Source: a virus (lineage: Duplodnaviria; Heunggongvirae; Uroviricota; Caudoviricetes). From it: a DNA stretch of 32,675 nucleotides. Under the pieces are notes generated by a model. It searched no databases. It saw only the letters and a program-made list of their open reading frames with translations, and was not told where the DNA came from. The translations under genes and the position numbers were made by a program. Shown here piece after piece: positions 4,834 through 7,823 of this stretch. Within the stretch, counting starts at the first letter, position 1. Each line of letters begins with the position of its first letter. The stretch is from positions 1-32,675 of IMG/VR virus record IMGVR_UViG_2663763159_000003; one strand, written 5' to 3'.

Positions 4834-4855
4834 AAAAAAAACCGCCGAAGCGGTT
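4834..4855 (-). terminator. Intrinsic terminator-like hairpin between T and H (minus-strand RNA AACCGC-UUCG-GCGGUU followed by a U-run)
   Basis: Plus strand aaaaaaaaccgccgaagcggtt; 6-bp stem, UUCG tetraloop, 7-8 U. Confidence 0.45.
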
Positions 4856-4863
4856 ATGTTGAC

Positions 4864-5154
4864 TCACTGAGACACTATTAAAAGCGCGTTTTCCAGTCCG
4901 GCAAATGGATCTGAAGCGCCTTCTGTCTGCTCCTTCTCCCACTGAAGAAGCGCATCATTCAGTGACACTTTGACCCCCTGCGCACCGTAAACAGCTGAAA
5001 CAATCTGGGCAGCCCGGAAATCAGCCCGTTCGTCCCCCAGCGGGCTGAACCTGTCAAATTCTGCCCACATCATGATTTCTGATGCGGACATTTCCCGGCG
5101 TAACTCTGACAATGTGCGCCCCATCCTGAGCGCCAGCATCATCAGAAAACGCAT
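4864..5154 (-). CDS. T: Tail assembly chaperone T-frame segment, expressed as a G-T fusion by -1 frameshift
   Basis: ORF in the -1 frame relative to G (codon phase checked), beginning just downstream of the A AAA AAG slippery site at the end of G. Confidence 0.7.
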   Translation of the reverse strand: MRFLMMLALRMGRTLSELRREMSASEIMMWAEFDRFSPLGDERADFRAAQIVSAVYGAQGVKVSLNDALLQWEKEQTEGASDPFAGLENALLIVSQ

Positions 5155-5165
5155 CCCCGGAAGCG

Positions 5166-5552
5166 CTACTTTTTTTTAACCTCGCCGGCATCACTGATCA
5201 GTTCCAGAGACTGCCGAAGAAGCCGCGCATGCACCGGGCCATACACGGCAATCACCTGTTCACGATCATCCTCTGAAAATACGGGTTGTAGTCCGGTATC
5301 ACACAGAACATCAATGAACAGTTCAACATCTGCCTCCAGATTTCGGCGGGCGCGCTCCGCAACGGATAACGGTGTCTCATCATCTTTTGCTTTAACGATC
5401 TCCTGCCAGCGCAACCAGGCTTCTGCAGAAGGTTCCCGTAACACAACCGTTGCTCCCTCCCATTCAGGCACATCAACGGTTTTATGGCGAAACCCCGACA
5501 TCGTTGCCAGTGCCAGATTACGGATATTTTTAGTCATCACATCCATCCTCAT
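5166..5552 (-). CDS. G: Tail assembly chaperone G
   Basis: 128-aa ORF ending ...GEVKKK-stop with the slippery heptamer in its last codons; position between V and H. Confidence 0.85.
   Translation of the reverse strand: MRMDVMTKNIRNLALATMSGFRHKTVDVPEWEGATVVLREPSAEAWLRWQEIVKAKDDETPLSVAERARRNLEADVELFIDVLCDTGLQPVFSEDDREQVIAVYGPVHARLLRQSLELISDAGEVKKK
5169..5180 (-). other. Programmed -1 ribosomal frameshift site (A AAA AAG) for G-T fusion
   Basis: Minus strand reads gtt aaa aaa aag tag; run of eight A at 5170..5177. Confidence 0.7.
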
Positions 5553-6256
5553 TAACTGACGGTTACAGTGCAGGAAGTGGAGGTCACTTTGTTAACCGGG
5601 CTCGCTGAATCAGAAATCTCGCAGGTATACGCACCCGCATCACCGGATGATGCTGATGCCTTACTGAACGTTGCCGCCGTCTGTCCGGAAACAGGAGAAC
5701 CACCTTTCTTCCAGACATAAGAATAAGGCGGCACACCACCCGCAGCCTCAACCGCCATTTCAAGTTTCGCTCCGGAAGCAACCCGCAGCGTGCTTTTTAA
5801 ATCAACCTTCACTTTCAGCGAAGCTGTCGTCAGCACAGGTTTGCCTTTCAGACGCAGGGAAAACGTTGCAGCCACAACACCATTGGTTCCTGCAGACCAG
5901 GTATGCTGACGCACTTCAGCCATAAAGGTAAATCCGTTGCCTGACGGAAAAATAACTTTAAAGCCATACGTGGTGTCATTGTCATAGGCACTGCGCAACG
6001 CATTCTGGGCAGCATTGAGGTAAAAGTTGCCTGACATGGAAATCTCTGACGCGGCACCAAGACCGTTAATATTTTCCTGCTCAACAGAACACAGCGTGGT
6101 GACATCAATATCCTGCTTTTGTCCAGCGGTAAACTGCACTTCTTTGATTGTACAGCTCAGGCCAAGATAGCTGGCAGAATCCAGGGTTTCTGCTGTTACC
6201 GGTGCAGACGAAATCATAATTTTCGTCAGTTGCGAACGCTCAAAATTAGAGGACAT
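5552..6256 (-). CDS. V: Major tail protein V with C-terminal Ig-like domain
   Basis: 234 aa; Ser/Thr/Val-rich C-terminal region typical of Ig-like decoration domains; AGGAG RBS; synteny. Confidence 0.9.
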   Translation of the reverse strand: MSSNFERSQLTKIMISSAPVTAETLDSASYLGLSCTIKEVQFTAGQKQDIDVTTLCSVEQENINGLGAASEISMSGNFYLNAAQNALRSAYDNDTTYGFKVIFPSGNGFTFMAEVRQHTWSAGTNGVVAATFSLRLKGKPVLTTASLKVKVDLKSTLRVASGAKLEMAVEAAGGVPPYSYVWKKGGSPVSGQTAATFSKASASSGDAGAYTCEISDSASPVNKVTSTSCTVTVS

Positions 6257-6273
6257 ACTCGTCTCCTGAAAAT

Positions 6274-6295
6274 AAAAAAACCCGCCAGCGGCGGG
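6274..6295 (-). terminator. Intrinsic terminator-like hairpin between U-like gene and V
   Basis: Plus strand aaaaaaacccgccagcggcggg; perfect 6-bp GC stem, 3-nt loop, 7 U on the minus-strand RNA. Confidence 0.45.
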
Positions 6296-6316
6296 TGGGT
6301 AAAATCATTAATGACC

Positions 6317-6661
6317 TCAGGCTATTACTTGGAATTCAAGCGTGGCTCTGCTCAGACGGGAGTCAGGATCATAACCCTGCGTTTTAGAAATAACGGAGGG
6401 TGCCAGTTTTCTTACCGCATCAAGCGCCTGCTCACGAATATTATCTGCGTCATCAGGTACTGTCGCCCAGACATCGATCTGCACGGTAATTCTGGATTCA
6501 GCCTGCCCATCAAGCACATCAGATGCCGTGTCAGACACCACAGAAAACACCAGCCACGGCGGAGATACCGCAGGCTTTCCATCCGTCAGTGGGACCACAT
6601 AAGGATAAACCTGTCCTCCGGCCAGCTGAGACAACAGGGAATACAGTGTGGCCTCTCTCAT
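6317..6661 (-). CDS. Tail terminator / tail completion protein (U-equivalent by position)
   Basis: 114-aa ORF between the Z-like gene and V; no motif-level identification. Confidence 0.6.
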   Translation of the reverse strand: MREATLYSLLSQLAGGQVYPYVVPLTDGKPAVSPPWLVFSVVSDTASDVLDGQAESRITVQIDVWATVPDDADNIREQALDAVRKLAPSVISKTQGYDPDSRLSRATLEFQVIA

Positions 6662-7107
6662 TTACTTAAGACCTCATCAATAGCCTGATTCATTCGCTGT
6701 ATGGCAATCCGTGCTGCCAGTTCCTCTGTCGTATCGAAAGCCGGGCGAATGAATGGATGCGCGGGCATGTTTATCGTTCCCAGCTCCACAAAGCGCCAGT
6801 AAAATGCATTTCGGGGATCGCTGGCTTTCATGCTGTTATCACTGTTTCCGGTTCGCAGGTTCCGTCCGCGAATGTGGACACCCGAGATAATTTCCCCCCG
6901 ACGCTTTGAACGCTGAGTGAGAACAACCACATTTTTCTTCAGTTTCCCGGTTCGCTCCGGCGCACGTTCAACAACTGCATCCCGCATAACTTCAGCACCG
7001 GCACGGGTGGCATCGCGCAGAACCTTATTGTTTTCTGCCCTGCTGAGCGTCTCCAAATCCCGTGCAATATCCGCCAGGCCGGAAAAATCAAGACTGAAAT
7101 CCATCAC
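6658..7107 (-). CDS. HK97 gp10-family tail component (Z-equivalent)
   Basis: 149-aa ORF overlapping neighbours by 4 nt; position upstream of tail terminator. Confidence 0.65.
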   Translation of the reverse strand: MMDFSLDFSGLADIARDLETLSRAENNKVLRDATRAGAEVMRDAVVERAPERTGKLKKNVVVLTQRSKRRGEIISGVHIRGRNLRTGNSDNSMKASDPRNAFYWRFVELGTINMPAHPFIRPAFDTTEELAARIAIQRMNQAIDEVLSK

Positions 7108-7442
7108 ACATTCCCCTTCAGGCTGCAGAGTATTTCAAGCCGGGTAGCGCGTGCATCCGGTATTGGTGGACCTTCTATACCCAGAATGGCCCCTTTAAAT
7201 GCACCGGTCAGCACTTTCAGACGTGAAGTCGCTGTCACATCGCGCCGGAATCTCATCCAGACTCTGACCGTAGCCTGAGCGGTTTCTGCTCCGCCTGAGA
7301 TTATCTCCCTCCCGCTGATACCCTTAACTTCTGCCCATACGGTAGCTCCCTCCGTCACCGTCTCCACCGGATGCCCTGACGGAGAGCGGGCGGTGGTGAC
7401 ATTCAGAATAATTACGCGATCACGTAATCTGCCCGCCTGCAT
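7104..7442 (-). CDS. Head-tail adaptor / head closure protein
   Basis: 112-aa ORF immediately downstream of the connector gene. Confidence 0.6.
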   Translation of the reverse strand: MQAGRLRDRVIILNVTTARSPSGHPVETVTEGATVWAEVKGISGREIISGGAETAQATVRVWMRFRRDVTATSRLKVLTGAFKGAILGIEGPPIPDARATRLEILCSLKGNV

Positions 7443-7450
7443 GTCTCCTC

Positions 7451-7768
7451 CTACAAAGGAATAAAACGATAAGGCTCCAGCAGAGAAGAAAAACCAAACG
7501 GGACTGGTGCCTTGCTGACATCTGAGGAATTTTCCCGGTTTTCGTACCAGTGCCCGACCAGCAACATGAGCGCCAGCAAAACATCATCAGCTATAAGCAC
7601 CCCTTCAGGATCACCTTCCGGCACCGTCTCCTCATAAAGCTTACGGTTGATAAAATTTTCTGCCTTGCGGCAGGCAGCCCGGAAATACAGCATCAGTAAC
7701 TCATCATCAGTTGCATCATCTGTATCAATACGGCACTGCGCCCTGAGTTTTTCCACTATTGCTGCCAT
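7451..7768 (-). CDS. Head-tail connector (gp6-like)
   Basis: True start taken as ATG at 7768 (MAAIVEK...) preceded by AGGAG; the longer track ORF would overlap the capsid gene. Confidence 0.7.
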   Translation of the reverse strand: MAAIVEKLRAQCRIDTDDATDDELLMLYFRAACRKAENFINRKLYEETVPEGDPEGVLIADDVLLALMLLVGHWYENRENSSDVSKAPVPFGFSSLLEPYRFIPL

Positions 7769-7801
7769 CAGAAACTCCTGCCCGCAACACTGTGCGGGCA
7801 T

Positions 7802-7823
7802 AAAAAAACCGCGTCGGCGCGGT
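7802..7823 (-). terminator. Intrinsic terminator-like hairpin immediately after the major capsid gene
   Basis: Plus strand aaaaaaaccgcgtcggcgcgg; 5-bp GC stem and 7 U on minus-strand RNA, followed by a second hairpin gcccgcacagtgttgcgggc before the connector RBS. Confidence 0.5.

Follow-up and report, generated by a model that had tools for sequence, protein, structure and literature searches.

Conserved terminator-like hairpins at the block borders of the late operon in an HK97-like Escherichia coli prophage

In the genome record of phage HK97 (NC_002167), a feature described as "terminator, putative" is annotated at each of three junctions of the late operon: after the capsid gene 5 (5192-5213), between the gene for the tail terminator and the major tail gene 12 (6692-6719), and after the moron gene 15, directly before H (8398-8422). 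Morons carry their own promoter and terminator and are hence expressed from a repressed prophage; the first to be described was HK97 gene 15, at this very T/H junction (PMC3594210). The record of Shigella phage SfV (NC_003444) likewise annotates a "putative rho-independent terminator" (5547-5584) between its major head gene and orf6. Here we describe three hairpins with U-runs in the late operon of the virus record IMGVR_UViG_2663763159_000003, whose whole stretch of 32,675 nucleotides (nt) we refer to as the window and which, judged by its sequence, is an HK97-like lambdoid prophage of a type common in Escherichia coli. The hairpins stand after the major capsid gene (hairpin A), between the tail-completion gene at the position of lambda U and the tail tube gene V (the U-like/V hairpin), and between the chaperone gene T and the tape-measure gene H (the T/H hairpin). 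They are real, conserved and non-random terminator-like signals at the borders of the head, neck, tail-tube and tail-tip blocks. This kind of element is already known, and two of the three instances appear to be homologous to annotated ones.

The late genes all lie on the minus strand, and a previous sequence-only reading of the window had pointed to three perfect GC hairpins with U-runs on the transcribed strand. We recover each of them on the minus strand at the positions then given (Table 1), and the folding energies which that reading had proposed as a check amount to -8.1 to -12.6 kcal/mol. All three stems are perfect helices of 6-8 base pairs (bp), of which 4-6 are GC, and close loops of 3-4 nt, and the U-runs (U7, U7 and U8) begin inside the last stem pair, in keeping with what is required of an intrinsic terminator. 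Each hairpin starts 10-22 nt beyond the stop codon of the gene that precedes it, be it capsid, tail-completion or T (19 nt in the case of hairpin A), and is placed in a non-coding spacer. Directly downstream of the U-like/V hairpin follow the GGAG (6266-6263) and the start codon of V, and the start codon of H lies downstream of the T/H hairpin.

That such structures should have arisen by chance is not supported by our counts. A strict pattern, which demands 6 or more perfect bp with a minimum of 4 GC pairs, a loop of 3-5 nt and 7 or more T among the 8 bases that follow, matches positions 1-13300 three times on the sense strand, never on the antisense strand, and not once in 300 dinucleotide-preserving shuffles. 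Three of the four sense-strand T runs of at least seven in this region belong to the three hairpins. Between the capsid gene and H there are only three spacers of at least 40 nt, each of which holds one hairpin, and the remaining junctions overlap or have gaps of at most 14 nt. When the pattern was relaxed and applied to the whole minus strand, a single extra site was obtained, in the nin region (18853-18830). It is a strong terminator-like hairpin (AGGCCTGC-TGGTAATC-GCAGGCCT) with a U-run, situated just upstream of ninB, and probably represents a nin-region terminator overridden by early antitermination. A looser, general terminator scan was without overall enrichment (24 found, 20 expected); the signal is consequently confined to strong, co-oriented, intergenic sites and does not concern hairpins at large. 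We rejected the notion that the elements are bidirectional terminators, as the opposite strand is devoid of U-runs and the strict pattern has no antisense match. No known RNA family was detected by Rfam at the hairpins, two transfer RNAs (tRNAs) being the only hits above the gathering threshold in the window. The best matches within 4700-7950 were isrK (18 bits against a threshold of 50, E = 0.88) and anti-hemB (17 bits against 49.5, E about 0.9). These sub-threshold matches to Hfq-binding small RNAs, at 6272-6346 on the minus strand, cover the 3' end of the tail-completion gene together with the terminator; their scores do not exceed chance, and the terminator hairpin is probably what drives them.

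The three sites relate to the annotated phages in different ways. The U-like/V element is homologous in sequence to HK97 6692-6719, with which it shares ACCCGCC...GGCGGGU and the adjoining UUCAGGAGAC, and the homology extends through the following ribosome-binding site. At T/H the likeness is positional only: HK97 8398-8422 is the positional equivalent of the T/H hairpin, and HK97 has moron gene 15 in front of it whereas the window has none. Hairpin A is without sequence homology to its HK97 counterpart, and the HK97 capsid protein is 24% identical to that of the window. Instead, clear homology at this junction is found with SfV, which shares the tandem order of hairpin A with its U7 and then a second hairpin, here called B, that abuts the ribosome-binding site; both A and B have their homologs there. 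The SfV annotation spans the hairpin B stretch, not the hairpin with the U-run. With its Mu-like contractile tail, SfV has no counterpart of the two tail junctions. HK97 carries further co-oriented putative terminators (3309-3335, 7443-7462, 13799-13824 and 15107-15129), and its sites at the portal end and after gp12 have no counterpart in the window.

Conservation was assessed in HK97, HK022, SfV, 18 viral contigs (L063-L080; capsid proteins 77-79% identical), about 130 close relatives, and four loci from other genera, including Phytobacter, Symbiopectobacterium and Superficieibacter. These last four were the usable outcome of a tube-protein scan with one genome per species, in which the remainder matched the Ig domain alone; the scans of viral contigs returned mainly near-identical E. 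coli prophages, which inform on polymorphism and mosaic joints and not on deep divergence. All sampled lineages with this tail module whose sequence reaches the junctions (HK97, L069, L072, L080, L083, L084, L085 and L086, with tube proteins 66-76% identical) keep hairpin and U-run, and their 5' spacers have diverged past alignment. For the four hairpins, hairpin B included, the arms of each lineage pair to 100% with each other, whereas arms swapped among lineages pair fully in only 11-26% of the cases, a crude control in that unequal stems were aligned by their outer ends. This comparison of arms is register-aware; at the T/H and capsid junctions, variable stem and loop lengths put MAFFT and RNAalifold alignments out of register. 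Tetraloops of the UUCG or GNRA type are frequent, which indicates selection at the level of RNA and not of DNA. The main polymorphism in the close relatives is the length of the U-run, from 6 to 9. An additional hairpin without a U-run follows the tube gene in HK97, L083 and L084.

At the U-like/V junction, the hairpin is present in all 30 of 30 distinct spacer variants, a few close relatives showing point changes in the stem or the U-run. RNAalifold yields an 8-bp consensus hairpin over 11 lineages with invariant core pairs and two compensatory pairs. In this alignment the stem and the next UUUU are the most conserved columns, and the 5' spacer is unalignable. Phage HK022, whose tube protein is unrelated, also has a hairpin before V.

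At the T/H junction, eight lineages carry eight different stems directly upstream of H, all of them perfectly paired. Merely 10 nt separate the T stop codon from the hairpin in the window, and the whole T-to-H spacer of 40 nt holds no open reading frame (ORF) and consequently no moron. In HK97, L069, L072, L080, L084 and L022, about 280-1,670 nt lie between T and the hairpin, and those inserted ORFs that we translated (HK97, L034, L022, L069 and L080) encode small membrane proteins or lipoproteins. The close relatives L034, L015, L182 and L184 have a moron insert of about 400 nt that is followed by a hairpin identical to that of the window, and a mosaic joint lies just before this hairpin in the moron-carrying L034 group. 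The hairpin closes the inserted small gene before H in L034, L022, L069, L080, L084 and HK97; the window has the terminator only. Hence, the T/H hairpin appears to be the moron terminator of the relatives, kept in the window without the moron. Moron-less loci are the rule among the close relatives sampled here, 119 with a hairpin and no moron against 11 with a moron, and HK022 has neither moron nor hairpin in a gap of 19 nt. As a side observation, T/H emerges as a hot spot for moron insertion (L034, L015, L182, L184, L022, L183, L069, L072, L080 and L084; 8146-8434 in HK97): the inserts vary among membrane protein, zinc-ribbon and lipoprotein genes, each of which is followed by a hairpin and U-run directly before H. 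No moron was found in our sample at the other two hairpins.

The capsid junction is the most elaborate of the three. Hairpin B starts one base past the U-run of hairpin A, and a single base separates its end from the GGAG (7778-7775) of the gp6-like adaptor gene; lacking a U-run, it does not qualify as a terminator. The 81-nt region that holds both hairpins folds with a z-score of -3.57, and 0 of 200 shuffles are as good. Ten lineages, among them SfV, keep hairpin B, with compensatory exchanges in the stem (e.g., A-U to C-G, C-G to U-A). In several relatives its helix is predicted to reach 10-14 bp by pairing of the preceding U-run with the GGAG, and the extended helix takes in part or all of the adaptor ribosome-binding site; in the window this extension is interrupted. 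Hairpin A is conserved with differing stems and loops in SfV and in the viral loci L063-L080 and L083. Each capsid type sampled has a GC-rich hairpin after its gene, with a weaker U-run behind unrelated HK97-type capsid genes. One such group (L155, L123, L136, L179 and relatives) possesses its own hairpin, GGGGGCGCAGAAGTGCGCCCCC, with a weak U-run, and an extra ORF of about 60 amino acids between this hairpin and the adaptor gene. In L182, L184, L146, L166 and L161, an unrelated capsid gene (24% identical) is joined to an identical adaptor gene, and the switch lies inside hairpin A; the last codons of the foreign capsid gene (AAA GCC GCT GCG TAA) provide a new 5' arm for the retained GCGG and U-run. 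A further mosaic switch, in L051, lies just after hairpin B.

The operon in which these elements reside is predicted to be controlled by a Q antiterminator that is essentially identical to Q21. Directly after Q follow a late promoter-like site with TTGACA and a strong tR'-like hairpin with U7, where the late transcript would start; promoter activity and loading of Q are predictions of ours for this site. Downstream on the same strand lie tRNA-Asn, tRNA-Thr, an S21-type holin, lysozyme, Rz, an HNH endonuclease and terminase, and the arrangement from Q to terminase is that of the standard lambdoid late transcription unit. The Q control that the sequence-only reading had assumed is thereby borne out at the level of genes and sites, and its gene labels agree with Pfam. 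The tRNA pair (GTT and TGT anticodons; 16636-16791, minus strand) is located between the tR'-like terminator and the holin gene, and its tRNAs would accordingly derive either from late transcripts that have read through or from a promoter of their own, with no further source.

Structural work by Yin, Kaelber and Ebright revealed a nozzle that Q21 forms on the RNA exit channel and that keeps pause hairpins as well as terminator hairpins from forming (10.1101/651190). If Q21 controls the operon, read-through by Q-modified polymerase is the behavior to be expected at our three sites. A polymerase loaded with Q21 cannot form the exit-channel hairpin, so any polymerase that is stopped there must be unmodified. 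We therefore propose, with moderate confidence, that the three elements are conditional intrinsic terminators that insulate blocks of the late operon from one another in the lysogen and are overridden in lytic growth. They would split the operon into four blocks: packaging and head up to the capsid gene, neck, tube (V-G-T), and tail tip from H onward. Polymerase unmodified by Q, originating from leakage past tR', from stray internal promoters or, in the relatives, from moron promoters active in the lysogen, would stop at the hairpins. Internal start sites on the coding strand have indeed been mapped in the capsid cluster of a prophage in Salmonella lysogens (PMC7067206). In lytic growth, the Q21-loaded polymerase coming from the late promoter would read through, its narrowed exit channel barring hairpin formation. 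Once out of the polymerase, the read-through RNA would fold, and the hairpins would then probably hold up 3' exonucleases and mark where processed segments end. Termination, read-through, insulation and a stabilizing role are all suggested by what the sites look like. What argues for working intrinsic terminators is their form, their strand, their placement at particular junctions and, most of all, the U-run, since termination requires it and an exonuclease barrier does not, and it is conserved together with the stem.

Several considerations weigh against this proposal. With stems of no more than 6-8 bp (-8 to -13 kcal/mol), the elements could be of modest efficiency; with the flanks included, two of the hairpin regions fold unremarkably (z-scores of -0.3 and -1.7). 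Promoter-like sites on the sense strand of the window are not above chance (14 against 18 expected) and give no promoter signal that would call for insulation. The U-run could alternatively be a site for RNase E or a U-rich enhancer of translation near the ribosome-binding site. No hairpin stands at U/V or T/H in lambda, nor at T/H in HK022; the elements are consequently not essential to an operon of this type. Our literature search returned no 3'-end mapping inside a Q-dependent late operon.

A partial terminator, a 3' stabilizer and a processing site, the three functions that the sequence-only reading had named, are indistinguishable from sequence, and the explanations weighed here are not mutually exclusive. 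The hairpins might act chiefly after transcription, an explanation that we regard as possible and yet unlikely. The transcript would be cut in the U-rich strand next to the hairpins, which would guard the 3' ends, while hairpin B would guard the 5' end of the neck message, so that each block acquires its own half-life. The UUCG and GNRA loops and the compensatory changes in the stems indicate selection for a stable RNA hairpin; at the capsid junction two hairpins flank a U7A linker, and hairpin B is conserved with covariation despite being devoid of a U-run. A hairpin without a U-run also stands behind the tube gene of HK97, L083 and L084. An exonuclease barrier has no need for the U-run that is conserved at all three sites, unless these runs are RNase E sites, and a hairpin at U-like/V would stabilize the message of the low-copy neck genes, with no obvious gain. 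The stems are also far below the length of an RNase III substrate. In a T7-type RNase III site the duplex is long, extends over some two helical turns and frequently contains an internal loop, and we rejected RNase III sites for stems of 6-8 bp as too short.

Rather doubtful is the proposition that the hairpins are leaky attenuators in lytic growth, at which a few percent of the polymerases are lost per site even in the presence of Q, thereby setting capsid above neck and tube, and these above tape measure. Two of the three sites stand where expression should drop, from capsid to adaptor and from G/T to H, and the T-phi terminator of T7 is found right after capsid gene 10. Furthermore, inefficient terminators have been reported to balance expression in phages T7 and LUZ7 (PMC9163698). 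It had been stated for the window that the hairpins sit after the most highly expressed structural genes; this is true of the capsid gene and loosely of the V-G-T block, and it fails at U-like/V, where the hairpin follows four low-copy neck genes. The abundant tube gene comes right after this hairpin, contrary to what attenuation predicts, and the place is wrong for an attenuator or a stabilizer of abundant messages. As Q21 blocks hairpins in the exit channel, losses at such short hairpins are moreover expected to be small.

More speculative still is our suggestion that hairpins A and B form one two-part control module whose U7A linker is cut in the read-through RNA, or that the terminators are docking points for modules, or both. 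In the first case, a protective 3' hairpin would close the capsid messenger RNA and a protective 5' hairpin would head the neck messenger RNA; the extended hairpin B of many relatives would also hold translation of the 12-copy adaptor far below that of the 415-copy capsid protein. In the second case, the three terminators would be conserved sites at which head, neck and tail modules, as well as morons, are exchanged between phages.

It is improbable that the hairpins are an evolutionary residue, left behind by moron terminators or as recombination patches with little present function. Three independent mosaic joints do coincide with them (inside A in the L182 group, after B in L051, before the T/H hairpin in the L034 group), and the T/H hairpin of the window is retained without a moron gene. 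Structure and U-run persist over lineages with different stems, however, and the L182 recombinants regained pairing through a new 5' arm taken from the last codons of the capsid gene. Neither is a moron known from any relative at U-like/V, and intact T/H hairpins without a moron are the majority state among close relatives. We give equally little credence to elements of translation initiation, by which the hairpin would shield the next ribosome-binding site and the U-run would be a standby or S1 site that boosts V and H: some 18-24 nt lie between the end of the stem and the start codon, with the U-run running toward the GGAG (window, HK97, HK022, L083 and L084), but so compact a layout is equally expected when terminator and ribosome-binding site share a spacer, the low-copy H requires no enhancer, and at the capsid junction the U-run leads into hairpin B and not into a ribosome-binding site.

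Of 5,426 complete E. coli genomes, 951 carry the prophage, in every case in the chromosome, and induced E. coli phages, e.g., vB_EcoS-733R4, Evi and PhiR49_2, match the region at 98-99% identity. From the head-closure gene onward its proteins are 52-79% identical to their HK97 counterparts, and the order of the genes and the junctions match the HK97 late operon; the capsid protein is 68% identical to that of SfV by tblastn. The features of the late region are compiled in Table 1.

Table 1. Hairpins, late regulatory features and late genes of the window (positions are given in the direction of transcription for single features)
Feature	Positions	Strand	Evidence or remarks
Hairpin A, after major capsid gene	7825-7802	minus	AGACCGCG-CCGA-CGCGGUUU (7825-7806) + U7 (7808-7802); DNA 3' arm CGCGGTTT
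Hairpin B	7800-7779	minus	UGCCCGCA-CAGUGU-UGCGGGCA, no U-run
U-like/V hairpin	6296-6274	minus	ACCCGCC-GCU-GGCGGGU (6296-6280) + U7 (6280-6274)
T/H hairpin	4855-4834	minus	AACCGC-UUCG-GCGGUU (4855-4840), UUCG tetraloop, + U8 (4841-4834)
Q antiterminator gene, Q21 type	17428-16883	minus	Pfam PF06530, E = 1.1e-24; PDB 6JNX, 6P18 (Q21), E = 1e-109
TTGACA late promoter-like site and strong tR'-like hairpin with U7	from 16876; hairpin 16838-16796	minus	directly after Q
Small terminase	13282-12800	minus	Pfam
Large terminase	12800-11043	minus	Pfam
Portal	10895-9669	minus	Pfam
S78 prohead protease	9676-9077	minus	Pfam
Major capsid protein, HK97 fold	9062-7845	minus	Pfam PF05065; tblastn
gp6-like adaptor	7768-7451	minus	Pfam; start corrected, ATG 7768
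Head closure	7442-7104	minus	Pfam
gp10-like protein	7107-6658	minus	Pfam
Tail completion, gp17 family (lambda U position)	6661-6317	minus	Pfam
Tail tube protein V, C-terminal Ig domain	6256-5552	minus	Pfam; ATG 6256
Chaperone G (Phage_TAC_1)	5552-5166	minus	Pfam
Chaperone T (Phage_tail_T)	5154-4864	minus	Pfam
Tape measure H, first gene of tail-tip block	4823-1590	minus	Pfam PF06120, PF20155, PF09718; ATG 4823
M, L, K	downstream of H	minus	Pfam
Neck block (adaptor, head closure, gp10-like, tail completion)	6317-7768	minus	between hairpins A/B and U-like/V hairpin
Tube block (V, G, T)	4864-6256	minus	between U-like/V and T/H hairpins

Some further features of the region deserve mention. The end of G (5166-5180, minus strand) reads GUU AAA AAA AAG UAG in the sense direction and contains the slippery heptamer A_AAA_AAG directly before the stop codon; the frame of T is open in -1 from this site, as expected for the programmed G-T frameshift that is annotated in HK97. 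The terminase-portal spacer of 147 nt (about 10890-11025, minus strand) is without a terminator-like hairpin and holds a small hydrophobic ORF that starts with MTGLIGFGLLTAGVYLYAGLPASLMLSGCLLLLYALVVSMRRKH and reaches into the portal start. On the plus strand (13919-14458), antisense to the late operon, an ORF of 179 amino acids with a YfbU domain (PF03887, E = 3e-11) occupies the 1.1-kb gap between Rz and the HNH gene and is a possible moron in reverse orientation. A dedicated capsid promoter was considered at 9097-9070 and rejected, the candidate matching 9/12 positions with no room for a leader, and promoter-like sites being at or below the shuffle expectation.

Should insulation by conditional terminators hold true, it would help to explain how about 20 kb of structural genes stay silent in a lysogen in which inserted morons are expressed, and why the late genes are controlled by a processive antiterminator and not by a simple activator. 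The hairpins are also practical landmarks of module borders, at which mosaic joints and moron insertions are located, in a prophage family that is present in about one sixth of the complete E. coli genomes.

Beyond HK97 and SfV, the window invites comparison with several other elements. Lambda has hairpins rich in GC within its Q-antiterminated late operon, in the D/E, E/FI and I/J spacers near the genes for head decoration and capsid, and some of them carry U-runs; they are unrelated in sequence to those described here, and none is found at U/V, V/G or T/H. The T-phi terminator of T7, right after capsid gene 10, is a terminator-like hairpin with partial read-through at a comparable place; T7 uses its own polymerase and no antiterminator, and the sequence is unrelated. 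Stem-loop terminators have been described as the boundaries of the late gene clusters in phage SPP1 (PMC6316719), which places hairpins between late clusters just as in the window; no Q is known there, and the sequences are again unrelated. The logic is shared by Tn916, where the internal terminators T1-T3 have been demonstrated to insulate genes of the integrated element, which they keep silent until the processive antiterminator canT overrides them upon activation (PMC11658703). This is a conjugative element with an RNA antiterminator and without homology to our locus, and what has been demonstrated there we infer for the window. Collectively, the three hairpins are an ordinary feature of a known kind, and the idea behind them is decades old; ours is a confirmation with added detail rather than a discovery. 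The sequence-only reading had missed the HK97 and SfV annotations, the identity of the T/H hairpin as a moron terminator, and hairpin B. What we add to the known systems is a conserved hairpin B next to the adaptor ribosome-binding site, mosaic joints that fall at the hairpins, and a moron terminator that has outlived its moron.

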